A program made the translations under genes and the position numbers. A stretch of 64,000 nucleotides of DNA from Chamaesiphon sp. (GTDB taxonomy: Bacteria > Cyanobacteriota > Cyanobacteriia > Cyanobacteriales > Chamaesiphonaceae). The stretch spans positions 1 through 64,000 of the forward strand of contig CBDFFH010000020.1 of NCBI GenBank assembly GCA_965246715.1, read 5' to 3'. Below the pieces are notes generated by a model. That model saw only the letters and a program-made list of their open reading frames with translations, had not been told where the DNA came from and did no database searches. Shown here one piece after another: positions 13,935 through 35,811 of the stretch; the stretch's first letter is position 1, and the number at the start of each line of letters is the position of its first letter.

Positions 13935-14053
13935 TTGGCTCTTGTCCTTCTAATATCTACCATAATTTTATAGTACCGATCTCTAGATCTATTATTTTTT
14001 AGCCGAACGCGCTTTTCTCACCCCCAAGGGTGGTCGAACTAGCGGAATGTGGG

Positions 14054-15490: not shown

Positions 15491-16153
15491 ATGAATGGCA
15501 ACTTGCCCCTTTTTCTAGTGATTGAAGATCATCCCGAAGTCTGTCAAAATAACTGTGAATTTTTGCGGACGATCGCCCCTGAGTGTAGCTGCATTAGTGT
15601 AGATACGCCGGAAAAAGGTGCCGAACAACTCAAACAGGCAATACCCGATTTGGTAGTGGTCGATTTACAGTTTGGGATAATTGGGGGCGCACAGTCAGCA
15701 AAGCCTGGTTTGGCACTTTTACAACAGATCTTTGAATACTACCCCACGGTAAATATCCTCGTTTATACGAGCGAACCAAATTGTTTGAGGCAAGCGATCC
15801 CGCAGATTGGTAAACACCAAGGGGGTTTTGTAGTTGTCAATAAAATGGAAAGACGCAGTGCTTTTCTAGAGGGAGTTCGCAGTGCTTTAGATGGGCAACT
15901 TAAAGTTCATCGAGAACTGATGAAAGACATGCCATTGACTCAGCAGGATTTAGAAATTCTAGATTTATTATGCAACCATGCTCTCACCGACCAAGCGATC
16001 GCGCAACGGTTGCACGTATCGATTAAAACGGCTCAAAACTACGTGCAGCGACTCAAGACTAAGTTGAACGTAGAGCACGAGGACGGGCAAAATGTAAATC
16101 CCCGTGTGGCTGTTTGCATGGCAGCGATCGGACGGAAGTTGCTCGTTTGTTAA
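15491..16153 (+). CDS. NarL/LuxR-type response regulator
   Basis: Receiver (IEDHP, VVVDLQ, VYTS, NK) plus C-terminal HTH (LTDQAIAQRLHVSIKTAQNY). Confidence 0.9.
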   Translation: MNGNLPLFLVIEDHPEVCQNNCEFLRTIAPECSCISVDTPEKGAEQLKQAIPDLVVVDLQFGIIGGAQSAKPGLALLQQIFEYYPTVNILVYTSEPNCLRQAIPQIGKHQGGFVVVNKMERRSAFLEGVRSALDGQLKVHRELMKDMPLTQQDLEILDLLCNHALTDQAIAQRLHVSIKTAQNYVQRLKTKLNVEHEDGQNVNPRVAVCMAAIGRKLLVC

Positions 16154-18281: not shown

Positions 18282-18562
18282 AAATCTTCGTCACATTCTT
18301 CGATTTGCCAGTTACCAGTAGGAGTTTGAATCGCTCCATTCAAACGAGGATTTCTCAATATTTTACCTGCTAATGGTGGGCCAGAAAGCGATCGCACCTG
18401 TTCGCCCTCTATTTCTAAACGTAATTTCACCGAACCTCCTTGTCCGACTCCACTAATCACCCGTCCATTACCTGCCCAGATTTGGCTGGCATTGGCTGGA
18501 AAGCTTAAGAGACTTAAGATCAAGCAGGTTTGACCGAGTGGGTGGGAGGAAAACAGACCCAT
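18215..18562 (-). CDS. Small secreted protein upstream of the kinase
   Basis: AGGAGG RBS, signal peptide ending PANA. Confidence 0.7.
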   Translation of the reverse strand: MGLFSSHPLGQTCLILSLLSFPANASQIWAGNGRVISGVGQGGSVKLRLEIEGEQVRSLSGPPLAGKILRNPRLNGAIQTPTGNWQIEECDEDLCVNLQQYYPQQIVFYRLQIQK

Positions 18563-18620
18563 TAATTAAATCCTCCTGAAATAGTCAATTAGGGAGATTA
18601 GCGATCGCCCCTTAGTAATA

Positions 18621-18765
18621 GGGAAGCATTTTCTACTTTAGCTGATGTGGCGATCGAAAAACTTGCGCGAACCCGCAAGTTTATGTGCGTGAATTCCTCT
18701 ATCTTTAGCCAGAAGAAGCATGAACAATACATATATCAACCAATTCAAGCAAATGACTAGAGCTT
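18621..18765 (+). promoter_or_regulatory. Conserved upstream element, copy 1
   Basis: GATGTGGCGATCGAAAAACTTGCGCGAACCCGCAAGTTTATGTGCGTGAATTCCTCTATCTTTAGC...; near-identical copies at 24872 (+) and 35359 (-). Confidence 0.8.
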
Positions 18766-18882
18766 TTGTATCTAACACTTAAGCGATCGAGCTTGTGTCA
18801 TCACTTAATTAATAGCAAGTCAATTTGTATCGAGCATACATTGAGATTTAGTAACTTTTCTAAATCACTAAGGAGCAACCCC

Positions 18883-19329
18883 ATGTACAAAATCATTAGA
18901 GCAACACTTTTGGCTACTTTTGTTACCTTGCTAGGGTCTTGCCCAGCAAACATTTTTTTAATTCCCTCTGCGTCAGCCCAATCTGGGATAGATAGTATCG
19001 CTGATATGGCTTTGAAGATTAGATCGGGCAGAACTTTCACAGTGACCTTTGACCAAGTAGGTAACAAATTTGACGATTCTCCCTGGGGAGGAACGACAGA
19101 CCCTATGGGTACGTTGAAAGCTGGAGAAACTTACGAAGTTAAATATTTTGATGGTAAATACACAACTCGCGGCCTTAACGAGGGTTCGGGAAAGGTGATG
19201 ACTGCGACCTACGGTGGTGCAAAGCCTGAAGAAGGAAAAATTTCACTCTGGGGGCGTATATACACTTTCAATGCTTGGGGATCTGTCACCGATCCTGAGT
19301 TTGGAGTAGTAGGAACTCTCCGGTTCTAA
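18883..19329 (+). CDS. Secreted hypothetical protein, paralogue of 33775..34239
   Basis: AGGAG RBS, signal peptide ending SASA; shared TDPMGTLKAGETY and ISLWGR motifs. Confidence 0.8.
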   Translation: MYKIIRATLLATFVTLLGSCPANIFLIPSASAQSGIDSIADMALKIRSGRTFTVTFDQVGNKFDDSPWGGTTDPMGTLKAGETYEVKYFDGKYTTRGLNEGSGKVMTATYGGAKPEEGKISLWGRIYTFNAWGSVTDPEFGVVGTLRF

Positions 19330-19495
19330 TTGTAGAACAGTATTTTTCTGTGTGCATCAGCTAAGCGATCGCTCCTTGGTAATAGGGAGACATTTTCCAC
19401 TTAAAAACTTGCAGGTTATTGCAAGTTCTTCAAAAAGCTTACGTAAATCTATCAAAAAGACGGGCATTAGGATTGTTATAGATAAAACGAATGAT

Positions 19496-20563
19496 ATGAG
19501 ATTTTTAAATTGTAGCTTTCTATTCGCAATATTATCTTTAATAAGTGCCGTGGTTCCAGTGCAAGCTGTCAATGCACCACCTAAAGAATTAACTGCTTTT
19601 TGTTCTACCACTCGCAATGAATATGTCGAAAACGTCAGAAAAAGATACGAGAGCCAAGAATACAAAGGTGAAGGTGGTGCAGGTGCTGGAATTGGTGATG
19701 GAGGATTATTCAAGTTGGGGGGAAAGGGCAGTTACGACTGGAAGCGAACTTGGGATAATTTTGATAGCAATAAAAAGCAAGAATATACAAATAAAAACTG
19801 CGATGAAGTATTAAAACAGTGGGGTGCAGTTTCAATTGCAGAAATTCAAGCAGATGCTGAAAAAGCGATTAAGCGTATGCAGCTTGAAGGCGATAAATAT
19901 AGTGAAGATACAAAAAGAATTGTTGCTGGATTTAACTTGGAGGCAATAAATATCGATGCTACAACTCGCATAAGAATTGAAGAGTTGCAACAAGCAGGTA
20001 GAACTGAAGAAGCAAAAATTCTTTCAGAGGCTCTGCAACGAAAGATAGAAGTTCAAGAGAAAGGAATGACCGATAGAGTCAGAATTGAAACTGATGCTCT
20101 TATCGCTATGAATAAGGCTAATAACACAGTGGAATTAAAGAAAGCTGAGTTAAATGCTGCCGTTGCTAGTAGTCAAAGTTTTAATCAATTAATGGGTACT
20201 GGTATTCAGGGTTTGGTCACATATTTTGGAAGCAGAGCTGAAGTCGAAAAAGAAAAAATTAAGGCTGATGTTAGAATTAGAGAAATTGAAGCTCAAATAA
20301 AAATCGAGGAAATCAAAGCAAGAAATAACATAGATCCCAATTTATCGCTAATTCAAAGTTGGGAGCTAACTCCTACCTCATGCACTTCTGGAGGGCAGGT
20401 AGTAACTATCATGATTGACAGTAAACAGTACTGTGTTAATTCTCATCCCGATTTAACTGCTAGAAGCTATCAATATAATCGTTCAACAAATCAGTTAGAA
20501 ATTTTATCATCACAACCTATTCTCAATCCTAAGCCTACTTCTCAGTCTGGGTCAGGCTTATAG
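19496..20563 (+). CDS. Secreted coiled-coil hypothetical protein
   Basis: Signal peptide from MRFLN ending PVQA; Gly-rich segment; long charged helical region. Confidence 0.75.
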   Translation: MRFLNCSFLFAILSLISAVVPVQAVNAPPKELTAFCSTTRNEYVENVRKRYESQEYKGEGGAGAGIGDGGLFKLGGKGSYDWKRTWDNFDSNKKQEYTNKNCDEVLKQWGAVSIAEIQADAEKAIKRMQLEGDKYSEDTKRIVAGFNLEAINIDATTRIRIEELQQAGRTEEAKILSEALQRKIEVQEKGMTDRVRIETDALIAMNKANNTVELKKAELNAAVASSQSFNQLMGTGIQGLVTYFGSRAEVEKEKIKADVRIREIEAQIKIEEIKARNNIDPNLSLIQSWELTPTSCTSGGQVVTIMIDSKQYCVNSHPDLTARSYQYNRSTNQLEILSSQPILNPKPTSQSGSGL

Positions 20564-20594
20564 TTTTTTGTTAATAAATCTCAAGGAGTAACCT

Positions 20595-21260
20595 ATGAAA
20601 TTTAAATCTACTGCTCACTTTTTAGTTGCTGCTTTGGCTCTATCTAGTACTTGTACTATTGCATCTACAGTTCAAGCTAAACCTCCAGTAAGTAATAGTG
20701 GTGATAGTGACGTTTCTGTACCAGTAGTATCTACAAATGGTGGCACTAAATTTAGTTGCGTTCCTCAAAGTGATGGGAGTATCGCTACCGTTGGGCAACG
20801 CCCTGGTGGGCAACCAATTCCTCTAATTATTTGGACTCAAGAGGGTTCTAGCTACTTTGGAGGAAAATACACACCTCAGAATCGCTGCAATATTGTTACA
20901 CCCAAATTGAACGCAGCTATTGCTGCTAGCGGTGGTAGTTTAAAAAATGTTCTATTAGCTAACGGTCAGGTGAAGAAAGAAACCGTAGTCTGCGTCATTT
21001 CTGCTACACAGAGTGGTTGTAATTCAGCAAATGTTCTTTTTACCCTCAAACCGCAGAATGCACAACGCGCAGGTGAAATTCTCTCGCAGATAATGCAAAT
21101 TAGTCGTGAGGGTGCTAGCGGTGGCGTGATTCGTGAGACAAGCGGTCGTGTTCAGGTCAATTTAGGAGATTGGGAAGAGTTAACTATGGGTGTTGCTTCC
21201 AGTGAGCCTGTGAATTCTGAAAATCCTGTGATTCCTAAAAAAACCCGTGATTCCAGATAA
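20595..21260 (+). CDS. COP23-domain secreted protein
   Basis: KFSC...PLIIW...YTPQNRCNIVT...VVC...LFTLKP motifs; signal peptide; AGGAG RBS. Confidence 0.85.
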   Translation: MKFKSTAHFLVAALALSSTCTIASTVQAKPPVSNSGDSDVSVPVVSTNGGTKFSCVPQSDGSIATVGQRPGGQPIPLIIWTQEGSSYFGGKYTPQNRCNIVTPKLNAAIAASGGSLKNVLLANGQVKKETVVCVISATQSGCNSANVLFTLKPQNAQRAGEILSQIMQISREGASGGVIRETSGRVQVNLGDWEELTMGVASSEPVNSENPVIPKKTRDSR

Positions 21261-21318
21261 TGGTGGGGGTCTGTAATTACTGAAAGTGTAAAGATGCATA
21301 ATTACCCTTCGAGATCGC

Positions 21319-22243
21319 TTGGGGTATATGTATCTCTACATCTATTTAAAGTTAATTACTAATACAATAACCGTGGTTTATTCCATACATTACAGGTCTT
21401 TTTTAGCATTGTTTATTACCAGCATCCTGAGTGGGTTATCTTCTTATTCATCCGTTCAATCTGGATCTCTATCTGAGGATAATGTTAATAATTCAATGCA
21501 GCCATTCGCTCGCCATTCTGAAGTTGGAGTGTCCTTACTAGAAATTGCCAAGCGGGTAACTGTGAGAATTTTAACTAAGTCAGGTACTGGTTCAGGAGTA
21601 ATCATTAAGCGCGACGGGCAGACTTATACAGCACTGACAAACCATCATGTAGTGGCTGACAGTCCAAAAAAGGGTTATCAGGTAATTACTTGTGATGGGC
21701 AACTCTATCAAGCAAGGGGAGTAAGTCAAGCTAATTTTGGTTCATTAGATTTAGCACTGGTAGAGTTTACCAGTAAATCTAGATTATCAAGTAGTGGTAT
21801 TTGGTAAATCACAAATTTTTGCTGATGGGCAAATAGTTTACTCAGCAGGTTTTCCGGCATGGAATTTTAGTTTTGATAGAGACACAATAACTCAATTTGA
21901 AGAAACTCGTAATTTGGGAATAAAAGTTTTTAAACTTACAACGGGAAACTTAAAGGTTCAACTCAATAAAACGCTTGTTGGCGGTTATAAAATTGGTTAT
22001 ACAAATAATGTTGTGCAAGGAATGAGCGGAGGCCCGGTTTTAAATCAAAACGGAGAATTAATAGCAATTAATGGGTTGTTAAAATATCCTTTTCAAGGTA
22101 TTAACGCTTTCACTTTTACTGATGGTACTGTCCCTGACCAGCAGCTTTCTCAGCAAATTGAAGCTTTGAGTTGGGCAATTCCTGTAACTAATATTTATAG
22201 ATTGCTAACAAAACAAAAAATATTAAATGAATTTGGTTTGTGA
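21319..22243 (+). pseudogene. Trypsin-like serine protease split by a frameshift near 21780
   Basis: GSGVII, LTNHHVV and DLALVEF in 21319..21807; GMSGGPVLN in 21794..22243. Confidence 0.8.
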
Positions 22244-22284
22244 TTAGAGTTTGTTTTTATCTATAGTTTTATTGCAAAAAAAAC

Positions 22285-23281
22285 ATGAGTTTATCTAATG
22301 ATTTAATCAATAAGATTAGTTCGATGATAGTTGGTACAGCACTAGTGGTAGTAATGGTTGTTACGCTACCAACATCTGCTTATGCAGCCAGTAGTCAAGA
22401 AGTTGCTCAAATTGCTAAAAAAACTACAGTCCAAATCAACAATGTCGGTAGTCCTTCTCCTGGAGGTTCAGGAGTAATTATTGCTAAAGAAGGCAATACT
22501 TACACTGTTTTAACTGCCAATCATGTCGTGTGTGATGCTTTAGATAGACCAGGCGCGATTGTTTGTTCTAGCGATATTACTTACTCAATTCGCACTTCTA
22601 CGGGAAGAGAGTATCCTGTTAAAGATATTAAAGTTTTACAAAAAAGTAAAGATGATGCGGATTTAGCAGTAGTCACATTTGAAGCAACAGAAGATTATCC
22701 AGTTGTGACTTTAGCTAATTCTGACCAATTGAAAGTTACTCAAGATATTTATTTAGCTGGTTTTCCTGCTACTTTTCAAAAGTCTGGAGTAGCTAGAGAG
22801 TTTAATCTCCCAAAAGGCTCAATAATTTCCTTTCAAAACAATGCTTTAAATGGTTATAGCTTAGTGCATAATGCTCTAAGTCTTAAGGGAATGAGTGGGG
22901 GGCCTGTACTTGATAGCAGTGGTCGAGTAATAGCAATTCATGGACTAGCTGATGGGATATCTGGAGGAAAGTCTGGGTTTAATGCTGCAATTCCAATTAA
23001 CACGTTTATATCAATATGGTCTCAAATTCCAGGTGCGACAAAATTAGCGATAGAGAATAAATCTCAATATGGAAATTTCCCAGATTGGGTTTGTTGGAAA
23101 TTGGACAAATGAGTGTACGAAGCTATTTAGCGAGCAAGCCTGTTTGTGTACGGCTCAAAAGGTGACATCTAGTTTTACTTATGAGGAAGTTTTGGAAATA
23201 AACCAAGTTGTTCGAGGGGGATATAAACCACCACAGAAGATTGTGGATCTTTACAGATCTTGTGGTGTCAATCCTTTTTAG
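22285..23281 (+). CDS. Trypsin-like serine protease, probably continuing (frameshift near 23087) into a Cys-rich C-terminal domain
   Basis: LTANHVV, DLAVV, GMSGGP; removing one G in TGGGTTT joins it to ORF 23069..23281 (ECTK...CLCTA...RSC). Confidence 0.75.
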
Positions 23282-23361
23282 GATAAATTAAAGTTACTAA
23301 AGTACTTTCATTTTTAGTTGAATCACATCTGAAGTTTGTAGTTTTTAGGGGAATCGAAGAT

Positions 23362-24789
23362 ATGCGTTTATATTCCAATAAATTCAATAATTATCCCTCT
23401 AGGATATTGGGTACAGTAGTAGTGGCAGTAATAGTAGTTACTCTACCAATATCTGCTTATGCAGCCAGTAGTCAAGAAGTTGCCCAAATTGCTAAAAAAA
23501 CTACAGTCCAAATCAATAATGTCGGTAGTCCTTCTCCTGGAGGTTCAGGAGTAATTATTGCTAAAGAAGGCAATACTTACACTGTTTTAACTGCCAATCA
23601 TGTCGTGTGTGATGCTTTAGATAGACCAGGCGCGATTGTTTGTTCTAGCGATATTACTTACTCAGTTCGCACTTCTACGGGAAAAGAGTATCCTATCAAA
23701 GAAACTAAAGTTTTACAAAAAAGTAAAAATGATACGGATTTAGCAGTAGTCACATTTGAAGCAACAGAAGATTATCCAGTTGTGACTCTAGGGAATTCTG
23801 ACCAAGCGGAAATCGCCGCAGATATTTTTGTTGCTGGTTTTCCGGCAATATTTGGAAAATCAGGGACAGCCAGAGACTTTACTTTTACTAAAGGGTTGGT
23901 AGTTTCTCATACTAGTAGTGCCATCAATGGTTATAGTTTGATTTACGATGCCAGAACCATGACGGGTAATAGCGGAGGTCCAGTATTTGATGTGGCTGGA
24001 AGACTTGTAGCAATTCATGGACTCGCAGATACTTCCACACAGAGTAAATCAGAAACAGGAAATTCAATACCACAGAAATCAGGTTTCAATGCAGGGGTTC
24101 CAATTAATACCTTTTTGGCGATGCGATCGCAAATCTCCAGTATCAGTTCAATTAAGCAAGACAATACTTCCACAGGAGTAAATTCTTCTATTCGTTTGAG
24201 TAAGCCTCAGTCTGCCAGAGATTTTTATGCAAGAGGTCTAACGAAGATAGAGCAAAGTAGTACTAGGGCAGATCGAGGTGCAATAGAAGATTTCAATCAA
24301 GCAATTCGGCTTGACCCTAACTTTGATGAAGCCTATTTACAATTAGGAAGTGCTTACCATAACCGTGGCTTACAGGGTAAAGATGCTAACAGTTCTTTGA
24401 ATGCTTATAAAGTAGCAATTGAAAATTATAGTAAAGCACTTCGTATTAACCCTGACTTTTTTGCAGCTTATCTACAACGGGTAAAAATTTATGGTGAAAT
24501 TAACGAGATTTTTGCTCGTACAAAAACTGATGCTACAACTATAAATGAGAATATTCAAGCAGCCTTTGAAGATATTAATCAATTACTGCGAATCGATCCA
24601 AATTCTCCTTATGCATATCGTGAACAGGGAGCTTTCCGCTTCGAGCAAAAGGATTATCAGGGAGCATTTGTGTCTTATCAAAAAGCTGTTGAAAACTTTG
24701 AAAGAAGAAAAATTACAGGTCATGCTTATGATAATAGCCGAACCCTGCTTGATTTTCTTAAACGTTATCATGATAAGCTAGGGCTTTAG
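23362..24789 (+). CDS. Trypsin-like serine protease with C-terminal TPRs
   Basis: LTANHVV, DLAVV, GNSGGP followed by AIEDFNQAIRLDP-type TPRs. Confidence 0.9.
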   Translation: MRLYSNKFNNYPSRILGTVVVAVIVVTLPISAYAASSQEVAQIAKKTTVQINNVGSPSPGGSGVIIAKEGNTYTVLTANHVVCDALDRPGAIVCSSDITYSVRTSTGKEYPIKETKVLQKSKNDTDLAVVTFEATEDYPVVTLGNSDQAEIAADIFVAGFPAIFGKSGTARDFTFTKGLVVSHTSSAINGYSLIYDARTMTGNSGGPVFDVAGRLVAIHGLADTSTQSKSETGNSIPQKSGFNAGVPINTFLAMRSQISSISSIKQDNTSTGVNSSIRLSKPQSARDFYARGLTKIEQSSTRADRGAIEDFNQAIRLDPNFDEAYLQLGSAYHNRGLQGKDANSSLNAYKVAIENYSKALRINPDFFAAYLQRVKIYGEINEIFARTKTDATTINENIQAAFEDINQLLRIDPNSPYAYREQGAFRFEQKDYQGAFVSYQKAVENFERRKITGHAYDNSRTLLDFLKRYHDKLGL

Positions 24790-24871
24790 ATGTAGATATA
24801 GGCTTAATAAGTTAGGGTACTAAAAAAGTAGAAGGCGTAGAAGTAGGGTAAACACATTTAAATTTGATTAG

Positions 24872-24996
24872 GATGTGGCGATCGAAAAAGTTGCGCGAAC
24901 CCGCAATTTTATGTGCGTGAATTTCTCTATCTTTAGCCAGAAGAAAAATGAACAATATATATGTCAACCGATTCAAATAGTTGATTACTAGCTTGA
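24872..24996 (+). promoter_or_regulatory. Conserved upstream element, copy 2
   Basis: Near-identical to 18644-18765; precedes the VMO-I gene. Confidence 0.8.
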
Positions 24997-25037
24997 CTGA
25001 TAGTATGACAGTATTTGAATATGAGAGAGATCCAAAA

Positions 25038-25661
25038 ATGCAAAAAACACTATTTTTTTTGAGCTTAACTTCGACCACATTTTTCATTAGTATTATTGGT
25101 AATCAGAATATTTTAAGCCAGGATATTCGTAAGGATCTTATAGGGATAAAATATGGTGGCACAGGAACTACTTGGGGTAGCTGGTCTAATCCGGTTTATT
25201 GTCCACCTGGAACCTGGGCTGGTGGATATTCGATGCGAGTAGAGCCAAGTAGACCAAAGAATGACGATACAGCCATGAATGCAATCGCGTTATATTGCTA
25301 CAATCGAACTGGTTCTCTAGTTCAACGCATTTCTCCACATCCAGGATATTGGGGATACTGGGGTGAAGCTGTAAGCTGTTCAAAAAATAATTTCTTTACC
25401 CATTTTCGGCTAAAAGGAGAGGGTACTCTACCACCAGGCGGAGATGATACATCTGTTAATTCTGTTGCATTCAGATGTAGTAACGGTGCAACTCTTGAAG
25501 GGGGCAACGGAGGTCCTTTTGGAAACTGGTGGGAGTGGCAATTTCCTCCTAATAATAATTCTGCCATTTGTGGGGTTAAAGCAAGAACTGAATCGCCGCA
25601 AGGTAACGGGGATGATACTGCACTTAATAGTCTTGAGTTTTCTTTTTGTACTATAAAATAG
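25038..25661 (+). CDS. Secreted VMO-I (vitelline membrane outer layer protein I) beta-prism family protein
   Basis: Three repeats with (W/F)GxW...DDT(A/S)xN...C pattern; signal peptide from MQKTL. Confidence 0.85.
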   Translation: MQKTLFFLSLTSTTFFISIIGNQNILSQDIRKDLIGIKYGGTGTTWGSWSNPVYCPPGTWAGGYSMRVEPSRPKNDDTAMNAIALYCYNRTGSLVQRISPHPGYWGYWGEAVSCSKNNFFTHFRLKGEGTLPPGGDDTSVNSVAFRCSNGATLEGGNGGPFGNWWEWQFPPNNNSAICGVKARTESPQGNGDDTALNSLEFSFCTIK

Positions 25662-25759
25662 GTCAATCGGAAAAAACTACGATTGAGTCGGTATCTACAA
25701 GTTTATCTTTTAGTGTTTGTCTGGAGACTATTCACGTACAAACAAGATCTTTTGCATAG

Positions 25760-27354
25760 GGTTCTACCGAACTTACTATGCTAAATCAAGGATTGAAATG
25801 CCATGCTAGCAAACTTCTGATCTGAAAATTCTCAAAATTTCTAAACCCATATCCCATTCTTTTTATTAGCTTGAGTTTATTGTTAATTCCTTCGACGACT
25901 CCTTGAGTTGTTCTATTATCAAAATAGGCAATTATTTCAGGTTCTACCGAACTTACTATGCTAAATCAAGGATTGAAATGCCATGCTAGCAAACTTCTGA
26001 TCTGAAAATTCTCAAAATTTCTAAACCCATATCCCATTCTTTTTATTAGCTTGAGTTTATTGTTAATTCCTTCGACGACTCCTTGAGTTGTTCTATTATC
26101 AAAATAGGCAATTATTTCACCAATCCATCTTTTAATAGTTCCACAACTCTTGGGGAATTTCCCACAAGCATTCTTGAGCCAGTCACACAAGCTTATTAGC
26201 CCATTTCCCCAATCTGTTTTTGATTCAAATATATCTCTAAATAACTCTTTTGTTTTGTGCATTGCTGCTAATTCTGGAAAAACGTCTCCAATCTCTTTCA
26301 ACTTCTCTTTTTGCAATTCATTCAAATCCGCTTCGTTTTTGAGTATTGCATATTTACTGTGAGTTAATGCTGCTAATTTCTTGTTCTTTTCATCTTTGTT
26401 CTTCACCCTCTCAGCCTCTCTTTTGATTTTAATTCTCTCTCGATCTAACTCTTCATTTATCTGTTTCATTACATGAAATCTGTCTCCAACCACTTCAGCA
26501 TTTGGTATCAATTCATTTACCAGACTTTTGTATGATGAAAATAGATCGATACTTACTTCTGTAATTTGGTTCAAAACCTCCGAACCCCAAGACTTCAAGC
26601 ACTCACCAATACATTCTTGAGTCCTTTTTGGTAAGATGGCTATTAACTCTCTTTTTTCTAGATCTACTAACACCGCACAATAGTTTTTTTGCCCTTTAAC
26701 AAAGGCAATTTCATCAATTCCTAGTCTGGTTAAATTCTCTGGCTTTTTTTGCACTAGATTTACCCCAGCTTTTTTGATTATTGTCTCCACTTCTTGCTCA
26801 CTTAATCCATTTCTTTTGGCAACACTTTTAATATCACTAGCTAGACTCTCTTCGACAATCTTCTGCTTCATTCGCTCGGTGAAATGACTTCTCTTTTTGA
26901 TGAAATTTAATTCCTCACTGAATTTTCGACCACAACTCATACACTTGAATTGACGACGATTAATTTTAAGGTAAACATCATGTTCACCGAATGGTAGATC
27001 TCTCACTGTTAATTGGTGATTCTCATGAAGTTTATTACTTTCAGTTCCACAATGAGGACACACTGCTTTTAATTGCTGATTTTCTAGATAAATAAAATAA
27101 CCGATTTCATCTAAGATCTTATAAGCAGTGACGGTCATTCCGTCGATATTAAGAATTTCATTAATGGTTTTTAGTTGCGATTTGGATGACATAATGCAAT
27201 TCAAGCTTATTTGTTGCCAGAAATCAAGATCTTACTATTCTATAATAAAATCTGTCATTTATGCTGCACCAAGCTTCCATAACTCAAAATTATCAATTTT
27301 GTCAATTAAACTTGATTCTTATCCACTACTTAGCATAGCAAGTTCGGTAGAGCC
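25760..27354 (-). mobile_element. ISL3 copy (25940-27354) preceded by a 180-bp duplicate of its end (25760-25939)
   Basis: Same sequence as 11202-12616; 8-bp TSD TTGCATAG (25752-25759, 27355-27362) flanks the whole compound structure. Confidence 0.95.
25966..27204 (-). CDS. ISL3-family transposase (identical protein to 11228..12466)
   Basis: Identical translation in the ORF track. Confidence 0.95.
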   Translation of the reverse strand: MNCIMSSKSQLKTINEILNIDGMTVTAYKILDEIGYFIYLENQQLKAVCPHCGTESNKLHENHQLTVRDLPFGEHDVYLKINRRQFKCMSCGRKFSEELNFIKKRSHFTERMKQKIVEESLASDIKSVAKRNGLSEQEVETIIKKAGVNLVQKKPENLTRLGIDEIAFVKGQKNYCAVLVDLEKRELIAILPKRTQECIGECLKSWGSEVLNQITEVSIDLFSSYKSLVNELIPNAEVVGDRFHVMKQINEELDRERIKIKREAERVKNKDEKNKKLAALTHSKYAILKNEADLNELQKEKLKEIGDVFPELAAMHKTKELFRDIFESKTDWGNGLISLCDWLKNACGKFPKSCGTIKRWIGEIIAYFDNRTTQGVVEGINNKLKLIKRMGYGFRNFENFQIRSLLAWHFNP

Positions 27355-27408
27355 TTGCATAGTGCCTATCTTTAAACAAAGAAATTACACTCCTGCCATC
27401 GCACCCTC

Positions 27409-28737
27409 ATGAAAAATCGTCGTAATTCTCTATTCTGCCTCAGCGCATTTTCTCTTAGTTTGCTCTTAATTATCAACCCATTAGGAATAAGTAGACTCAC
27501 TGTAAAAAAAGTCAACGCTCAACCAAAACCTCGACCTTATGTTGTTTTTGTTAATGGTCAAGGAAACTGTTGTACATGGGGCATGACAGCTTTACAAGAA
27601 AGATTGGAAAGGGATCTTGAAATTACACGAAATGATATGCGATTTGTTCCCTATAGCAATTTTAGGGATGGAGGTCAAAGTGGGGGTGGTAATCGATCTG
27701 ATTGGTCAAGTGTAGATACACAATTTTTGAGGGATGGTGCAGATTTTATCAACAATCAGCTTGATAGAAATCGTCCTTTGATTTTGATTGGGCACAGTTT
27801 TGGAGGAGATTCCATTTTAAGCCTTATCCTTCGTATAAACCGACGAATTCAGTTTGTTGCAGTCATCGATCCTGTAGCGGCTGGTGCACTTCGCGGCCCG
27901 ATTGTTCAAAATCGTCCAGTCCCTTCAAAGGTTGAGTATTTCTTCAATAGATGGCAAGAAAATTATCCTTGGCCTATTGACTTTAAACGAAGCGGGCAAG
28001 TTTTTAGTTGTGAGGCAAGTAGCCAGGGAAGAAGAAATTGCGATCAAGATTCACAAAATATAGCTAGGAATGCAGACTCCTCCCCAATAACACAGGAGTG
28101 CGGATGGCTCGAAACAACTTGTCCTGGTTATCTTGCTCCGAATCCATTCAGACGAGATCATCCTGGGGGTAGAAAAGGGACAAAACAAGTAAGAGTTGGT
28201 CATCAGGAGCTTCCACAAGATGCCTATCTTCAACAAACTCTTGGAGATAAAATCATCGCCCAAAGTGGCAGTTGGGTATCTGTAGGTGAGGTACATAATC
28301 CTGTTACAGCTACGATCGATCCAAACTCGCGCCCTACTGAATTTGACCGTTGTATGAAACGCACTGGTAATTCTAGCTTCTGTCTCAATGGCAGGAATCC
28401 AAATCTAGTGGAAATTCAGGGTAGCTTAGGCGCAGGTTTTCCAACTTTGAATGATGGCCGCCTCTACAAAGAACATTCGTTTACTGGACCTGCGGGTGAG
28501 CAAGTTACTATTACTCTGTCAAGCTCTGAGTTTGACACTTATCTAATCCTGCTTGATTCACAGGGTAACAAGATCGGTGAAAACAATGATGCTCGCCGAG
28601 AGACGACTGATTCACAGTTAACTATTACCTTACCTAATAGCGGAACCTATCGAATACTTGTCAAGGCTAATAACAGCACTGGGCGGGGGCAGTATACACT
28701 GAGCATTCTCGATGGTACTCGCCTTTTGTTTGACTGA
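27409..28737 (+). CDS. Secreted alpha/beta-hydrolase-fold protein with C-terminal PPC domain
   Basis: Signal peptide; nucleophile elbow LIGHSFGG; C-terminal GEQVTITLSSSEFDTYLILLD...NND...LPNSGTYRI. Confidence 0.8.
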   Translation: MKNRRNSLFCLSAFSLSLLLIINPLGISRLTVKKVNAQPKPRPYVVFVNGQGNCCTWGMTALQERLERDLEITRNDMRFVPYSNFRDGGQSGGGNRSDWSSVDTQFLRDGADFINNQLDRNRPLILIGHSFGGDSILSLILRINRRIQFVAVIDPVAAGALRGPIVQNRPVPSKVEYFFNRWQENYPWPIDFKRSGQVFSCEASSQGRRNCDQDSQNIARNADSSPITQECGWLETTCPGYLAPNPFRRDHPGGRKGTKQVRVGHQELPQDAYLQQTLGDKIIAQSGSWVSVGEVHNPVTATIDPNSRPTEFDRCMKRTGNSSFCLNGRNPNLVEIQGSLGAGFPTLNDGRLYKEHSFTGPAGEQVTITLSSSEFDTYLILLDSQGNKIGENNDARRETTDSQLTITLPNSGTYRILVKANNSTGRGQYTLSILDGTRLLFD

Positions 28738-29157
28738 TCTCTTGCTTGGGGTAGTTGATTAGATTCAGTAGGATGGGTACTGCCCACCAGCTAGATTTCA
28801 GGCATAATCTGTACTTTACATCCTCGATCGATGTCCGATAAATTTGAAACCCAGATCGCCGACTGGATAATTTAATATTGTGAGATTGGGGTCTCGATCG
28901 ATGAATCTAGACAGTAGAGCGAGATTCGCGAGCGACCGAACCGATACACCAGATGTTCGATAAATTTACATTACTTTACAACCTACAAAAATATTTAGTT
29001 ACTTTTTCCTACTGATGCCTCCATCCCGATCGAGTCACAATGAAATCTAAATCGATCGGTCATTGTGCTACAAAGATTATCTGCGTCCAGTGAGTGGAAA
29101 CGTTAGACCGACCGTTAGGCAAAGATATTAACAATTAGTAGCAAGGAGTAAAAATTT

Positions 29158-29418
29158 ATGAAAACCAAATTTCTTGTGTGTATTGGAGTTTTAAGTGTTA
29201 TTGTTTTGCTAATTTCTTCTTTGATTCCAACACCTGCAAAAAATTGCTCTGGTTGGAGGGGGAGTAAAATGTGTAGATGGCAAGAGTATCGCACGCACTG
29301 TAAAACACCAACAGGGAAAGGTTGTTCTGCTCAATATCGCGAATGCCAAGAATTCTACAGTTCAGGTAGAGAAATATCGAATGGGCAGCAATGCGGTGAT
29401 TGGCAGAAAAGATTATAG
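29158..29418 (+). CDS. Small secreted six-cysteine peptide
   Basis: AAGGAG RBS, hydrophobic signal peptide, six Cys in a ~58 aa mature region. Confidence 0.7.
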   Translation: MKTKFLVCIGVLSVIVLLISSLIPTPAKNCSGWRGSKMCRWQEYRTHCKTPTGKGCSAQYRECQEFYSSGREISNGQQCGDWQKRL

Positions 29419-29661
29419 GGTGAAGTCGTCCCAGTTAGCTCGGCAAGTTTGAAATTCAGTCGATCGTTCAACACTTCTGCAATGAATCATTATCATCTAG
29501 TCTTTTTGGTTATCGCTAGTTCGATCGCGAATCGTGCCGTCAAATCATCAAACTGTCGCAGGATGGAAAAGTAGGTACGTCTAGCTCGATCGCTTCAACG
29601 ACACTAATGTGTCTTCACGACAAATAAAAAATCACTGTACAAAAGCAAACGCAGAAGTAAG

Positions 29662-31812
29662 ATGAGCAAAAATAACAGCTTCACCGAATGGTATCTGCAA
29701 AAAGATTCCGTGTCTGCTCAAACGAGAAGAACGATCGATCTATTGCTAAAATGCGCTGATACCGAAGACTACCAACTCGCAGATGCTAAACTTAGCAGTC
29801 TCACCGAACTCGACCTCAGCCACAGTCAAATCAGCGATTTAGAACCGCTGGCGGGGTTGACAAACTTAACTTCTCTCACACTCACCGCGAATTATATTAG
29901 TGATGTGCAGCCGCTAGCAGCGTTGAGTAACTTGACGCACCTCCACATTAGCTACAATCACATCAGTGATATCCAGCCACTAGCAGAGTTGAATAACTTG
30001 ATTCATCTCGATCTCACCTCAAATCAAATCAGTGACGCACAGCAGTTAGGAGCGTTAAGTAATAACTTGACAGCTCTCTACCTCAACGACAATTACATCA
30101 GTGACCTAAAGCCCCTGGCACGGTTGACTAACCTGTCACATCTCCACCTTTGGCAGAATCAAATCAGCGATCTAGAGCCGCTAGTCGCATTGACTAACTT
30201 AACCGATCTCCACCTTGAAAGTAATCAAATTAGTGACGTAGAGCCGCTAGCCGCATTGACTAACTTGACTCGCCTCTTTCTTGAGTGTAATCAAATCAGT
30301 GATGTCCGATCGCTCTCAGGGTTGAGTAATTTGACCCAACTCCAGATTAGCAACAATCAGATCGGTGATTTACATTTGGTGGGGTTGAGTAACTTAACTT
30401 TGCTTGGCGTTCGGAACAATCAACTCATTACTATCCATCTAGTGGGGCTGAGTAACTTAAATTGGCTCAGTCTTGCCTATAATCAAATCAGTGCGATACA
30501 TCTAGAGGGTTTGAATAACTTGACCGATCTCTATCTTTGTGAGAATCAAATCAGCGATCTAAAGCCGTTGGCAGGGTTGATTAACTTGACCGATCTCTAC
30601 CTCGATAGTAATCAAATCAGCGATCTAGAACCTCTAGCAGGGTTAATTAATTTGGACGATCTCCATCTCGAAGGTAATCAAATCAGCAATCTAGGGCCGC
30701 TGGCAGGTCTGATTAACTTAAGTAGGCTAAGACTCCAGAGCAATCAAATCAGTGACCTAAAGCCGCTAGCAGGTTTGATTAACTTGACCGATCTCTACCT
30801 CGATAGTAATCAAATCAGCGATTTAGAGCCGCTAGTCCCATTAACTAACCTGACCGATCTCTACCTCGATGAGAATCAAATCAGCGATCTAAAGTCGTTA
30901 GCAGAGTTGATTAACTTGACTGAACTCTACCTTAGTGAGAATCAAATCAGCGATCTAAAGCCGTTAGCAGAGTTGATTAAATTGAGGTTGCTCCATCTCA
31001 ATAGTAATCAAATTAGCGATCTAACGCCATTGGCAGGATTGATTGATTTGGATCGTCTTATCCTGAACGAGAATCAAATCAGCGATCTAACGCCATTGGC
31101 AGGATTGATTGATTTGGATCGTCTCATCCTGAACGAGAATCAAATCAGCGATGTATGGCCATTGGCAGGATTGATTGATTTGTGGCACCTTCATCTCGAT
31201 AGTAATCAAATTAGCGATCTAACGCCATTGGCAGGATTGATTAACTTGACTGATCTCAGCCTCGATAGTAATCAAATTAGCGATATAACGCCGCTAGCAG
31301 GGTTGATAGACTTGAAGGATCTCTACCTCTATCGTAATCAAATCAGCGATCTAACGCCGCTAGCAGGTTTGATTAACCTGAGAAATATCAATCTAGACAA
31401 TAATCAAATTAGCGATCTAGAGCCGTTGGCGGGGTCGATCGATTTGTCCCGTCTTGACCTTGAGAACAATCAAATCGTTGATGTAGAGCCACTGGCAGCA
31501 TTGACTAACTTGACTTGGCTGAGTCTGAGCGGCAATCAACTCATTGCTATAGAGCCATTAGCAGCATTGACTAACTTGGCTCACCTCGACCTTAATCGGA
31601 ATCAAATCAGTGATGTGGCACCGTTGGCAGGATTAAAGAACTTAAATGAACTCGAACTTGACAACAATCAACTCAGTGACTCACAGTTGACAGCAGCATT
31701 GAGTAACTTGAATGAAGTCGAGCTTAACAACGATCGAAATAGTGAAGAGTCAGTCGCAGCCTTAACTAACTCCACTGAACTCTGGCTCCAACAAATAATC
31801 AAATCAGTGTAA
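29662..31812 (+). CDS. Internalin-like leucine-rich repeat protein
   Basis: About 30 tandem 22-aa repeats LxxLxLxxNQISDLxPLAGL. Confidence 0.95.
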   Translation: MSKNNSFTEWYLQKDSVSAQTRRTIDLLLKCADTEDYQLADAKLSSLTELDLSHSQISDLEPLAGLTNLTSLTLTANYISDVQPLAALSNLTHLHISYNHISDIQPLAELNNLIHLDLTSNQISDAQQLGALSNNLTALYLNDNYISDLKPLARLTNLSHLHLWQNQISDLEPLVALTNLTDLHLESNQISDVEPLAALTNLTRLFLECNQISDVRSLSGLSNLTQLQISNNQIGDLHLVGLSNLTLLGVRNNQLITIHLVGLSNLNWLSLAYNQISAIHLEGLNNLTDLYLCENQISDLKPLAGLINLTDLYLDSNQISDLEPLAGLINLDDLHLEGNQISNLGPLAGLINLSRLRLQSNQISDLKPLAGLINLTDLYLDSNQISDLEPLVPLTNLTDLYLDENQISDLKSLAELINLTELYLSENQISDLKPLAELIKLRLLHLNSNQISDLTPLAGLIDLDRLILNENQISDLTPLAGLIDLDRLILNENQISDVWPLAGLIDLWHLHLDSNQISDLTPLAGLINLTDLSLDSNQISDITPLAGLIDLKDLYLYRNQISDLTPLAGLINLRNINLDNNQISDLEPLAGSIDLSRLDLENNQIVDVEPLAALTNLTWLSLSGNQLIAIEPLAALTNLAHLDLNRNQISDVAPLAGLKNLNELELDNNQLSDSQLTAALSNLNEVELNNDRNSEESVAALTNSTELWLQQIIKSV

Positions 31813-32207
31813 AACTTATGTTATTTGGCAATCCTTCACCTCAAATCCATAAATTCTCGATCTTGGTAGGAACAATTCGTCGAAATCAGATCCAGAGCCA
31901 TATTACTGGATCGCCGATCTTCGTCTCCCTCAAAGGCAGTAACGGGCGATCGTTTTAAAACCACTGCCACCATTTGCGGGGTTTGACTCGAACAGATACT
32001 GCCTCAGAATATGGAAAAATCGGCTCTGATGTCGGCGCATCAATGGGATAGGACTGACACAAAGCCACAGTACAATTAGGAGGTTCGCCGTTTAAATAGA
32101 CCTCCATATATTTGCAGTCAATTGTGCTGGGATTTATGTATGACTTTTCGGTTCCCTAGCTGCGCTGTTATTTGTGGACTCTAAAAGTCGTGGATTTAAG
32201 CGGTTTA

Positions 32208-33104
32208 CTAAATCGCACCTAATTCTCGGAGTTTATCGATCGTTATCTGGAATCTTGAAGTGTCTTTTTGTTCTTGAAATATGCGAGCGGCTTGCCGAAA
32301 GTCTTGAATCGCCCCTGTTTTGTCTTTTATTTTCTCCAATTTTAATAAACCGCGAGCGGCGTAAGCCTGAGCATGTTTAGGATCTAACTCTAGTGCCTTA
32401 TTGTAGTCAGCTAATGCTCCTAACACATCATTAAGCTTGGTGTGTTTCAACAATGCACGACCCACATAAGCCTCGACATGTTTAGGATTTAATTCGAGTA
32501 CCTTATTGTAATCAGCTAATGCTCCCAACGCATCATTAAGCTTTCTGTATTTTAACATACCACGAAACATATAAGCCTCGACATGTTTAGGATTTAATTC
32601 GAGTACCTTATTGTAATCAGCTAATGCTCCAGAGCTATCATTAAACTGGGTCTGTTTTAACAGACCACGACTCACATAAGCCTCGACATGTTTAGGATTT
32701 AATTCGAGTGCCTTATTGTAATCAGCTAATGCTCCCAATGTATTATTAAACTTGATGTGTTTCAAAACACCGCGATTAGCATAAGCCTGAGCATTTTTAG
32801 AATCTAACTCGATCGCCTTGTTGTAGTCATCTAACGCTCCCAATGCATCATTAAGATTAAAGTGCTTGAAAGAACCCCGTTCTAGGTAAGCTAAAGCATT
32901 TCTAGGATTTTGCTTTATTACTCGATCGAATTCAGCTAACTTAGCTACATCCGTAAGCTTATCTTCCTTTTTAATATTAGTAGCTTGAGCTATTTTCACT
33001 TTATCGTTGGCGGAGCCTCTCCACTGGAGAATCGACTGAGATAATGCAAAATTAGTATGAAATATGAGCGCACACGTACATCCCAGAATCAGTAAATATT
33101 TCAT
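32208..33104 (-). CDS. Secreted TPR protein
   Basis: Signal peptide; repeated GALADYNKxLELNPKHVEAY units. Confidence 0.9.
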   Translation of the reverse strand: MKYLLILGCTCALIFHTNFALSQSILQWRGSANDKVKIAQATNIKKEDKLTDVAKLAEFDRVIKQNPRNALAYLERGSFKHFNLNDALGALDDYNKAIELDSKNAQAYANRGVLKHIKFNNTLGALADYNKALELNPKHVEAYVSRGLLKQTQFNDSSGALADYNKVLELNPKHVEAYMFRGMLKYRKLNDALGALADYNKVLELNPKHVEAYVGRALLKHTKLNDVLGALADYNKALELDPKHAQAYAARGLLKLEKIKDKTGAIQDFRQAARIFQEQKDTSRFQITIDKLRELGAI

Positions 33105-33123
33105 AATTGGTGATAGCTTTACG

Positions 33124-33648
33124 CTATTTATTTTGTATATTCTCTAATCTAACTCTAGCCTCACCATTTTCTGTGAGATCCACAAGCTCCAGCACTATTG
33201 CCTCAATGCCAATGTGCTGATTATAACTACGTAATCCGGGTCGTTCAAATTTATCGGACATCGATCGAGGATTTACAGTATAGGCTGCAAATCTAGATAT
33301 ATAAACATTTGCCGATTCAATTACATAACATTTTGGGTATTCTTCAATATATTTAATTTTTATTTTGTATATTTTTTTATCTTTATCTTCGTGAGCTTTG
33401 TAATCGTGCATTGATAATACGAGCGAACGAACCAATTCACGGGATCTATGAGTAAATACTACTACATGCTCACCTGGTTTTAGCGTAAATGAGTCTGTTA
33501 TTTTAAATCGATTTATATTTGAAAAATTTAATAAATTAAGTTCGTTTTTTATAGGATTACAAAATGGTGAAACTGCTTTGGATTCGATCGGGGAAAACAA
33601 TATTAAATTAACGATCGCTAAAATTGACAATTGGATGGTTGTCTTCAT
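33124..33648 (-). CDS. Secreted hypothetical protein
   Basis: Signal peptide ending ESKA; in operon with neighbours. Confidence 0.65.
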   Translation of the reverse strand: MKTTIQLSILAIVNLILFSPIESKAVSPFCNPIKNELNLLNFSNINRFKITDSFTLKPGEHVVVFTHRSRELVRSLVLSMHDYKAHEDKDKKIYKIKIKYIEEYPKCYVIESANVYISRFAAYTVNPRSMSDKFERPGLRSYNQHIGIEAIVLELVDLTENGEARVRLENIQNK

Positions 33649-33774
33649 AAGTAGATCTTCGATTTGAGCTAAATGATTTCAAAAGATTGCTAAGTAGGTA
33701 GTAGGTAGAGGTAATTATCTATTAAATGGATTATGTCTGAAACGTAGCTAGCGGACAGTGCCCACCCTACTTTA

Positions 33775-34239
33775 CTAAAAGTGAAGAGTTCCTACAAGAC
33801 CAAATTGACGATCGTATACATTTGAACTTCCATCAAAAGTGTACACGCGACCCCAGAGTGAAATTTCTCCTCTGTCAGGATTGGCGTTAGCATAAGTGGC
33901 ACTAATCACCGATCTTGACTGCTCATTAAAACCACGAGTTGTGTACTTACCATTAGAATATGTGACTTGATAAGTTTCGCCAGCTTTCAACGTTCCCATT
34001 GGATCTGTGTTGCCTGTCCAACCAGAATCATCAAATTTGCGACCTACTTTGTCAAAGCTAACTGTGAAATTTTTGCCTGATTTAATGTGGTTAATGGTAC
34101 TGACACCACCTATACTATCGATCAGACAAGGCTCTACCAAACAAGCCTGGACTGACTTTGATCCGATAAAAATTATCCCTGCAAAGATCGAGGTGATGGC
34201 TATTACTCTCTTCATTCTGCCCAACATTTTTTCCTCCAA
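33775..34239 (-). CDS. Secreted hypothetical protein, paralogue of 18883..19329
   Basis: Shared FTVxFDxVGxKFDDSxWxGxTDPMGTLKAGETY...FGxVGTLxF. Confidence 0.8.
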   Translation of the reverse strand: MEEKMLGRMKRVIAITSIFAGIIFIGSKSVQACLVEPCLIDSIGGVSTINHIKSGKNFTVSFDKVGRKFDDSGWTGNTDPMGTLKAGETYQVTYSNGKYTTRGFNEQSRSVISATYANANPDRGEISLWGRVYTFDGSSNVYDRQFGLVGTLHF

Positions 34240-34290
34240 ATGCGGTGAATTTTAATGATATTGTTGGATGAAAATTTTTAAAACATTTTT

Positions 34291-34405
34291 GGGCGTTGCT
34301 GAATCCAAGTATGATAACTACTTCCTTCTATCCTCAAAAACCTTGGTAGGGGCAATTCATGAATTGCCCCTACCAAGGTTTTCATACCTTAAATCAGCAA
34401 CGCCC
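34291..34405. mobile_element. 115-bp MITE-like element containing a REP-like hairpin
   Basis: Ends GGGCGTTGCTGA / TCAGCAACGCCC, ATTTTT on both sides; internal palindrome AACCTTGGTAGGGGCAATTCATGAATTGCCCCTACCAAGGTT. Confidence 0.7.
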
Positions 34406-34547
34406 ATTTTTGCATTTTTTAGATAACATCATCTTGTCTTCCTAGTTGTACATGTATTCGAGCGATCGTATAACTCGTTGATTTACTGACAAGAGCGATC
34501 GCTTCCTCGGATTGGCGAATTTAGTGCGACCGCTGTTCCTATTAAAC

Positions 34548-35129
34548 TTAGCTACAAGCTTGAGTCGCTGCGTCTTCACTGACATCAGTACGCACATCTT
34601 GTGTTTGCCAACCAGCAAATCCTTCTTGTGGAATAGAACTACACCTTGGAAAACCAGTACGAGTACAAACTAGTTTTCGAGTGTACAATAACTGGCGCAT
34701 ACAATTAGCAACAGCTTCTGGCGAACGAGTCGGTTTAGTTTGGACTGGTACTAATATCACTCCAGGGTTTGAGGATGGTGCATCGCGAGCGATCGCACAA
34801 GCCTGAATTGCTGTTTCTTCGCTAGTTTGAGTACGTTGGGAATTGGAGTTCGAGGTTGCGGGTGTGTAAAGTAAAGAGTTAAAACAGCTTTGCACAGACT
34901 GTGACTCTTGTTCGGTTTTTACTCCCCCACAAACTTTACTAGCAGTTTGTTCGCTAATTTGAGTTCGTTGGGAATTGGAGTTAGAGGTTGCGGGTGTGTA
35001 AAGTAAAGAGTTAATGCAGTCGCTAGTAGGTGTTCCAGCAAAAGCGGCTGGGCTGGTTATTAGGTTTGCAGCTACGGAATTGAGTAGAGTTAATGATAGG
35101 AGGACAAACTTTGTTGTTTTCATTTCCAA
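34548..35129 (-). CDS. Secreted Cys-containing repeat protein
   Basis: Signal peptide ending AAFA; CxNSLLYTPATSNSNSQRTQxSExTA twice plus a degenerate third copy. Confidence 0.75.
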   Translation of the reverse strand: MEMKTTKFVLLSLTLLNSVAANLITSPAAFAGTPTSDCINSLLYTPATSNSNSQRTQISEQTASKVCGGVKTEQESQSVQSCFNSLLYTPATSNSNSQRTQTSEETAIQACAIARDAPSSNPGVILVPVQTKPTRSPEAVANCMRQLLYTRKLVCTRTGFPRCSSIPQEGFAGWQTQDVRTDVSEDAATQACS

Positions 35130-35214
35130 AAAGGTGTTAGTGGCTTTTGCTTGCCCTAACTCAAGTGATAACCCAAGGTCGATCGCTTATGTCATCGCTT
35201 AAGCGTTGGATAGA

Positions 35215-35359
35215 CAAGCTATAGTTATCTACTTAAATTGGTTGATACATGTATTCTTCTTTCTTCTTCCTGCTAAAGATAGAGGAATTCACGCACATAA
35301 AATTGCGGGTTCGCGCAAGTTTTCGATCGCCACATCAGCTAAAATGGAAAATGCTTCCC
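35215..35359 (-). promoter_or_regulatory. Conserved upstream element, copy 3 (inverted)
   Basis: Reverse complement matches 18621-18765 including the GGGAAGCATTTTC start. Confidence 0.8.
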
Positions 35360-35403
35360 CGTTACTTGGTATTAGTCTTTATTTATTGGTGCAAGATGTG
35401 AGC

Positions 35404-35811
35404 TTATTCTTTATTTTTCTTCCAATAATCAACTACTAATTGGAGGAAAGCACGAACATCCCGTTCGTTTTGCTGCAAATCAAGAATATCACATACATTT
35501 TGCGTTGGCTTCTGTAACTCCTGTGTGATTTCTTCTATTAATAAAGGAATGTCACCCGCTCTTTGTTCGAGAAATTGTTCGGCTATTCGTTGGTAAGCAT
35601 CTTGCGGATAGCGTTCAAAGATAATACCATACAAAACGATACCGATCGGACTGAGCCAACGGTCGCAAAGCCCTTGACCGAGCTTCTGAGCAAAATGGCG
35701 TGAACAACTCGGACATTCGTAGAATGTAATCTCTTGAGTGGATGTGGATATAACTCTCAACTGTACGGTTTCGCAACGCAGACAATTTTGTCGAGATCGA
35801 GCATTCTTCAT
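35404..35811 (-). CDS. Hypothetical protein with N-terminal zinc ribbon
   Basis: CLRC...CPSC. Confidence 0.6.
   Translation of the reverse strand: MKNARSRQNCLRCETVQLRVISTSTQEITFYECPSCSRHFAQKLGQGLCDRWLSPIGIVLYGIIFERYPQDAYQRIAEQFLEQRAGDIPLLIEEITQELQKPTQNVCDILDLQQNERDVRAFLQLVVDYWKKNKE

Follow-up and report, generated by a model that had tools for sequence, protein, structure and literature searches.

A repeated non-coding element that stands in front of several genes for secreted proteins, next to a two-component pair, raises the question of what reads this element and which genes it serves. The element was found in a 64,000-nt stretch of Chamaesiphon sp. DNA (assembly GCA_965246715.1, contig CBDFFH010000020.1, positions 1 to 64,000 of the forward strand; this whole stretch is hereafter called the window), beside genes for a CHASE2 sensor kinase and a NarL-type response regulator. 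An initial annotation had proposed a portable promoter/operator that places secreted cargo under the control of this pair. Comparison across genomes supports the proposal, and we put the probability at about 0.8 that the element is the operator-promoter of the adjacent regulator and heads a small local regulon of exchangeable secreted cargo. The argument depends on the following genes and element copies.

15491..16153, + strand: NarL/FixJ-family response regulator (receiver plus LuxR-type helix-turn-helix, HTH; Pfam Response_reg and GerE), predicted binder of the element
16179..18281 (true start likely nearer 18212), - strand: membrane sensor kinase with CHASE2, HisKA_3-type and HATPase regions (Pfam)
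18215..18562, - strand: orf115, small secreted beta-barrel protein (structure model), first gene of the kinase operon
18614-18787 by blastn, homology to ~18819, + strand: element copy 1, kinase-proximal, divergent from orf115-kinase
18663-18667, 18674-18678 and 18686-18689: half-sites of copy 1, followed by its -35 position (18700-18705) and -10-like hexamer (18723-18728)
18635-18640: TAAAGT, possible reverse -10 of copy 1
24872-24998, + strand: element copy 2, half-sites from 24891, -35 position 24928-24933, -10-like hexamer 24951-24956, without the 5' flank
35194-35366 by blastn, homology to ~35150, - strand: element copy 3, half-sites from 35318
35276-35281 and 35253-35258, - strand: -35 position and -10-like hexamer of copy 3
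19364-19430, + strand: degenerate copy 4, internally deleted, ahead of 19496-20563

As initially annotated, three non-coding copies of the element are present (85-92% identical by blastn), each directly ahead of a gene whose product has a hydrophobic, signal-like N-terminus and whose ATG follows the first half-site by 114-220 bp; copy 1 points away from orf115-kinase, and copy 3 has the opposite orientation to copy 1. Pairwise identity was 87.9% over 174 nt for copies 1 and 3, whose homology extends to about 18819 and 35150, respectively, 92.4% over 105 nt for copies 1 and 2, and 85.0% over 127 nt for copies 2 and 3, with E values of 1e-32 to 1e-56. Genome-wide, TTGCGCGAACCCGCAA occurred three times in 6,117,365 bases, always within the island copies, and a blastn search of the genome's 55 contigs, a check suggested along with the initial annotation, found no further full copy, which points to a local rather than a genome-wide regulon. 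In a weight matrix trained on 14 foreign loci, copies 1, 2 and 3 scored 40.5, 40.5 and 35.2 bits, and the next best site of the genome 18.8. Copy 4 consists of the 5' flank and a dyad, ACTTGC-N8-GCAAGT, and is missing the third half-site (dyad scan, alignment); it matched 18600-18638 at 87% over 39 nt (blastn) and scored below 14 bits. Among the three full copies, 2 of 43 columns vary in the operator and -35 region vs 11 of 43 downstream (Fisher p 0.014). The operator is thus steadier than the tail, a pattern that selection on copies 2 and 3 would produce.

The DNA similarity of the element fades fast (blastn of copy 1 in 40 relatives gave one match), and the motif was therefore found through the loci of the regulator instead: 30 loci of regulator relatives were fetched and the region divergent from the kinase operon was read. 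The conserved core is TTRCG-N6-CGCAM-N6-NTRCG, that is, three 5-bp half-sites with an 11-bp period and alternating orientation, followed on the 3' side by N3-AT, then T-A at +37/+38 and, from +60 to +65, a hexamer of the form A....T. It is evident in loci whose regulators are 50-85% identical, from this genome to Nostocales. Across 19 foreign primary copies, positions 0, 1, 3, 4, 11-14, 18, 23, 25 and 37 are invariant and the spacers variable, and in all 30 aligned copies the -10-like hexamer keeps A at +61 and T at +65. The dyad TTGCG-CGAACC-CGCAA given in the initial annotation is present in the copies; it proved incomplete, as a third half-site follows. TATCTT, formerly taken for the -10, lies 17 bp before AACAAT or AAGAAT, the -10-like hexamers of the window (TAATCT or TACTAT in the Nostocales type), and from this spacing we infer that it occupies the -35 position. 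The Nostocales type further carries two extra half-sites to the left and scores 16-18 bits on the reverse strand, with orf115 about 110 bp off, and in the window type several kinase-proximal copies have a reverse TAAAGT or TATAGT 23 bp to the left of the dyad. Together these features hint that copy 1 may also serve the kinase operon.

The link to the kinase-regulator pair rests on the distribution of the motif. The matrix was run over the window genome and all non-duplicate loci, leaving out 18 duplicate or own-window loci and the loci from L068 on. A copy of at least 28 bits was found in 25 of 30 genome-derived loci that bear the kinase, vs none of eight with the regulator alone (38 loci in total). 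Positives held out from training were L007, L018, L019, L026, L034 and L045-L050, and among metagenome loci L061, L062, L064 and L065; the latter four make up the 4/8 metagenome loci with a copy, the other four being cut by contig ends or disrupted. In five genomes of genus g18, which lay outside both motif derivation and training, the element stands on the regulator's side and heads a gene for an 88-aa signal-peptide protein. Judged from these sequences, the element stays with the kinase-regulator pair after rearrangement. Besides, in a draw of 401 genomes of the phylum, the regulator was present in 14 and a strict pattern of the element in seven, five times at the locus, once elsewhere in the regulator-bearing G205, and once among the 387 regulator-negative genomes (G232), 260 bp upstream of a sister NarL gene (32% identical); the reversed-pattern control gave no match in the 401 genomes. 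A looser pattern, with which ten other regulator-bearing genomes were searched whole, had 11 of its 12 matches at the locus, again indicating a local regulon. Pattern matches in G020 and G205 look like chance, being in coding or unrelated context. In further support of the link, element types A and B go with one regulator clade each, and the recognition helices differ between the clades, although linkage alone would give the same pattern. The sister NarL clade, 32% identical to the window regulator, carries TTGCG-N6-CGCAA-N6-TTGCG, often with a fourth half-site, between the NarL gene and a divergent gene (L038:1480-1540; L068-L073); this box was seen in 6 of 30 loci, all close kin from genus g18, and was absent in 24.

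The genes behind the copies in the window are listed below.

18883..19329, + strand: first cargo behind copy 1, secreted, no known family, replaced in close strains
19496-20563, + strand: downstream cargo, secreted, no known family
20595-21260, + strand: COP23 gene
21319-22243, + strand: trypsin-like gene, split by a frameshift into 21319-21807 and 21794-22243
22285-23112, + strand: trypsin-like gene
23362-24789, + strand: trypsin-TPR gene
25038..25661 (start 25005 or 25038), + strand: secreted protein with VOMI domain behind copy 2 (Pfam PF03762, E 1.5e-38)
34548-35123, - strand: first cargo behind copy 3, no Pfam family
33775-34239, - strand: copy 3 cargo, paralogue of 18883-19329
33124-33648, - strand: copy 3 cargo, further gene
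32208-33104, - strand: copy 3 cargo, TPR gene

Secretion is what these genes have in common. All 32 first open reading frames (ORFs) behind high-scoring copies passed a signal-peptide filter, vs 675 of 3169 long ORFs of the genome (21%), the filter being a loose one based on crude hydropathy and charge. They fall into 17 unrelated BLAST clusters, mostly without a Pfam family, a count made after one reverse and two shifted matches had been dropped. The cargo had been called secreted and unrelated; the first part holds, and the second does not hold for 18883-19329 and 33775-34239, paralogues with 55% amino acid identity, which point to local duplication in the common past of copies 1 and 3. Cargo is also shared across element types: 34548-35123 is 47% identical to the cargo behind the element in the Nostoc locus L026, and L005 and L027 have another cargo gene in common. 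Second element copies ahead of further secreted genes were found in L005, L007 and L011. Public sequencing runs provided contigs of other strains (close relatives mostly 90-99% alike, from four studies), from which gene order, and not transcript starts or levels, can be read. These contigs cover the kinase, orf115 and the element, and their match to the window ends at about 18800-18860; six distinct loose ends follow the element, some of which may belong to non-proximal copies. One contig of run X6 joins 34544 to 19426, placing copy-3 cargo directly ahead of 19426. The slot behind the promoter thus varies even between strains, and genes are plausibly exchanged by recombination through the repeated element and its remnant. 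Two other arrangements were observed. In one regulator subclade (L008:13488-16500; L009; L011; L065), the gene behind the element encodes a small helical secreted protein and precedes a DUF1800-DUF1501 pair, and in L016:1900-4243 five small signal-peptide genes lie in a row, divergent from the orf115-kinase-regulator operon, with a degenerate dyad only.

Several observations weigh against the regulator as reader of the element. A standard sigma-70 scan, including 18500-19500, did not call the element and passed no copy. Five of the 30 kinase loci had no copy of at least 28 bits; L016 and L054 have degenerate dyads, L021 and L024 are disrupted upstream of the kinase, and L023 meets a contig end. 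Three of the four foreign locus matches of the strict pattern are loci that had been used to write it, and the relatives compared are not independent. In G019 and G553, metagenome-assembled genomes of the same genus, an 87% copy was found and no regulator or kinase in the assembly; both are fragmented (520 and 420 contigs, respectively), and the G553 copy heads a frameshifted signal-peptide gene. The site might also be bound by a factor that the host encodes and be no more than a passenger of the module.

Such a factor, or an alternative sigma factor, would make the element a real promoter/operator that accompanies the cassette by adjacency. We regard this as unlikely. It would fit the orphan copies in G019 and G553 and the poor sigma-70 matches of the -35 and -10, and physical linkage by itself accounts for the co-occurrence; however, the dispersed copies that a global factor would have are lacking, loci in which no kinase accompanies the regulator are devoid of the element (0/8), the element keeps with the pair after rearrangement, and the sister NarL clade bears the same box in its own upstream region, if only in the close kin mentioned above. 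That only copy 1 works, copies 2-4 being neutral leftovers of local duplication or a miniature inverted-repeat transposable element (MITE), is very unlikely. The island (18600-36000) is a low-GC patchwork (39.3% vs ~46% for the genome) with insertion sequence (IS) elements, the pair 18883/33775 testifies to local duplication and copy 4 is decayed, all of which such an origin would explain. It does not explain why the genome has just three copies, none at random sites, why the operator is more conserved than the tail (p 0.014), or why second copies precede secreted genes in L005, L007 and L011 as well; moreover, the MITE signature of random sites with target-site duplications was looked for and not found, neither terminal inverted repeats nor such duplications exceeding chance words of 5-7 nt, and the copy ends differ.

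The initial annotation had also considered an inversion of about 16.5 kb between copies 1 and 3 and a structured leader RNA. As arms of an invertible switch that changes the cargo beside the kinase, copies 1 and 3 would have the inverted 174-nt sequence needed, and one contig of run X3 connects copy-1 sequence at 18783 with a copy-3-type flank at 35187 on the opposite strand. Yet the arms are just 88% identical and thus not homogenised, no recombinase gene adjoins them, and each carries a complete promoter, so that an inversion would have little effect. Run X1, which is source-like, is collinear over 17495-22403, and no such joint appears in the 15 of 48 joints listed, with the proviso that contigs cannot show rare orientations or exclude rare inversion events. 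The X6 joint is not the one that an inversion would yield and fits gene replacement in another strain. We therefore hold inversion as a function to be highly improbable. A leader RNA or riboswitch is scarcely credible. The dyad is able to form a hairpin, and the covariation score exceeded all 500 shuffles, owing to 13 double-changed cells in three outer pairs; this is the sole covariation, however, and it tracks the split between clades A and B. The core pairs never compensate (G13-C24 is broken in 7/30 and U11-A26 in 4/30), RNAalifold's consensus pairs none, folding z-scores are near zero (0.23, 0.66 and -0.98), and the copies have no Rfam match, the only matches in 18500-35500 being three weak miRNA-like ones on an unrelated palindrome at 34337-34382. 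Besides, the dyad lies upstream of the predicted start and would not be transcribed.

The proposed reader is a single-copy gene without a close paralogue in the genome. Its phosphorylation site is intact, with D58, E12-D13 and K118 invariant in 22/22 aligned sequences. Nearest relatives in the PDB are DevR, DesR, VraR and NarL, and the protein belongs to a distinct cyanobacterial subfamily that scores far under every NCBIfam equivalog cut-off; all named relatives are in Cyanobacteriota, and a search of a plasmid collection returned a single 32% relative only. The kinase has hydrophobic segments at 34-52 and 378-438, with CHASE2 (encoded at 17166-18119) periplasmic. Its HisKA_3 match in Pfam is weak (E 0.004), the region is LiaS/MctS-like in NCBIfam, and the H-box DIHDGP at H489 is present in 49 of 63 homologues; a genus-wide kinase search was positive in none of 26 other genomes. 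The product of orf115 has no Pfam or NCBIfam match and was modelled as a small all-beta barrel (90 aa, predicted local distance difference test score 95), its mature part being encoded at 18218-18487. It is closest to the C-terminal barrel of NHBA/fHbp (Z 10.2, root-mean-square deviation 2.3, 87 aligned), a shared fold that shows no function; Foldseek found no PDB match at E<=0.001, and the Atlas gave unnamed clusters only (at 0.90, low recognition) and no usable lead. The family comprises 67 clusters at 50% identity. Although orf115 precedes the kinase in most loci, it is absent from L008-L010, L025 and L065 and broken by stops in L045-L049. Since kinase, regulator and element persist without it, orf115, a candidate accessory or ligand protein, is more likely an accessory than an obligate signal. 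In several Nostocales loci (L031, L032, L034, L028, L026, L020 and L018) the regulator, kinase or orf115 is frameshifted or contains stops, suggesting frequent loss of the module.

If the element is the operator-promoter of the regulator, a mechanism modelled on NarL/ComA-family biology can be proposed. The CHASE2 kinase would sense an outside cue and phosphorylate the regulator at D58, whose dimers would occupy the inverted repeat and the third half-site immediately before the -35 and bring RNA polymerase to a promoter that is weak by itself, the -10 here being without the first T. Local copies of the element would let several secreted-protein genes come on together. More tentatively, copy 1 might also drive orf115-kinase in the reverse direction and so provide feedback, and new cargo might be recruited to the regulon when the element is duplicated along with flanking DNA and when genes behind it are replaced.

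Comparison with known systems places the module among NarL/FixJ systems. Like DevR/DosR, DesR, VraR and NarL, it combines a receiver and a GerE HTH with a HisKA_3-type kinase and a multi-half-site operator, and the conserved inverted repeat upstream of the -35, inherited together with the regulator, is what an operator of this family would look like; it differs by the CHASE2 input and the small secreted barrel gene before the kinase. The closest operator is that of the Bacillus subtilis ComP-ComA system (ComQXPA quorum sensing), in which ComP is a HisKA_3 membrane kinase and the gap between RE2 and RE3 of the ComA site is 6 bp. PMC4797271 describes this site as TTGCGG-4-CCGCAA, with RE3 as an additional half-site and a degenerate RE4 nearer the -35. 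Compared with it, the window copies (TTGCGC-GAAC-CCGCAA-N6-GTGCGT) match the dyad in 11/12 positions (5/6 and 6/6) and the third site in 4/6, whereas the RE4 position matches in 1-2/6 and an RE3-RE4 direct repeat with 5-nt spacer is lacking; both systems have a tetrahelical-HTH regulator, an inverted repeat and a further half-site before the -35. The regulator profile had 31 PDB hits (E<=0.01; best DevR/DesR/VraR), and ComA was not one of them, by profile comparison and not by a tree-based judgement of orthology. The window sensor is a CHASE2 protein, and its regulon is local with variable cargo, whereas that of ComA is spread over the chromosome; no comQ or comX was found beside the kinase among the 46 window ORFs scanned, a scan that excluded very short ORFs. 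By architecture the element resembles a ComA promoter, yet as far as can be told from sequence the module is not a ComQXPA system. The divergent agr P2/P3 promoters of Staphylococcus resemble the window module in that a single regulator site lies between the sensor operon and an effector unit transcribed the other way, and in possible autoinduction. They differ in relying on a LytTR-domain regulator (AgrA), a cyclic peptide signal and an RNA effector, features that the window module does not share. Integron cassette arrays likewise have variable cargo behind a fixed promoter; the window slot is without an integrase or attC-like site, and here the promoter itself is repeated.

The genes around the island are of plasmid or integrated-element type and include a relaxase, ParA/ParB, an actin-like protein and integrases. 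The genome has 2,789 HIP1 sites, which, together with the cyanobacterial relatives, points to a cyanobacterium. Other features of the window were also observed. At 1466-6301, two tyrosine integrases, a DUF6262 gene and a DnaB helicase lie in a row and resemble a recombinase-in-trio element. A perfect 25-bp palindrome (TAGTTCCACGTAATTACGTGGAACTA core) occurs four times at 10339-10850 with ~137-150-bp spacing and looks like a plasmid partition/replication site. Two identical ISL3 elements are located at 11202-12616 and 25760-27355, the second of which parts the VOMI gene from further secreted genes and has one end duplicated in tandem (180 bp, 25760-25939 = 25940-26119). A tandem pair of AraC regulators (13029-14959; 87% identical over 300 nt) is divergent from the NarL gene. 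Small palindromic repeats between cargo genes (34290-34420, 28767-28856, 33234-33283 and 33700-33771) occur genome-wide, with many copies on other contigs, unlike the element studied here.

The module is patchily distributed in cyanobacteria and apparently undescribed; full-text literature searches, covering listings and abstract starts, with subscription papers and supplements outside their scope, found no description of it. A more speculative extension, to which we give rather low odds, is that it is a mobile, native system of cyanobacterial cell-cell signalling. In this scheme a secreted protein of the module (orf115 or the first cargo) would be sensed by the CHASE2 kinase, the regulator would amplify itself through a bidirectional ComA-like box, and the hypervariable slot would connect each strain's own secreted proteins to a switch that senses density or neighbours. 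A Gram-negative phototroph would thereby have a protein-pheromone counterpart of ComQXPA/agr. To our knowledge, the ligands of CHASE2 domains are largely unknown. The operator, promoter and output set predicted here for an uncharacterised CHASE2 kinase/NarL pair would allow a reporter to be built with which the CHASE2 cue could be found. A fixed switch joined to a strain-variable slot for secreted genes is an unusual design, and 17 clusters of mostly unannotated secreted proteins are now flagged as likely responses to one outside cue. That the element is nearly identical to the ComA box of another phylum is relevant to DNA recognition by NarL-type HTHs, and, if the cue is self-made, the module would be a native signalling circuit in cyanobacteria.

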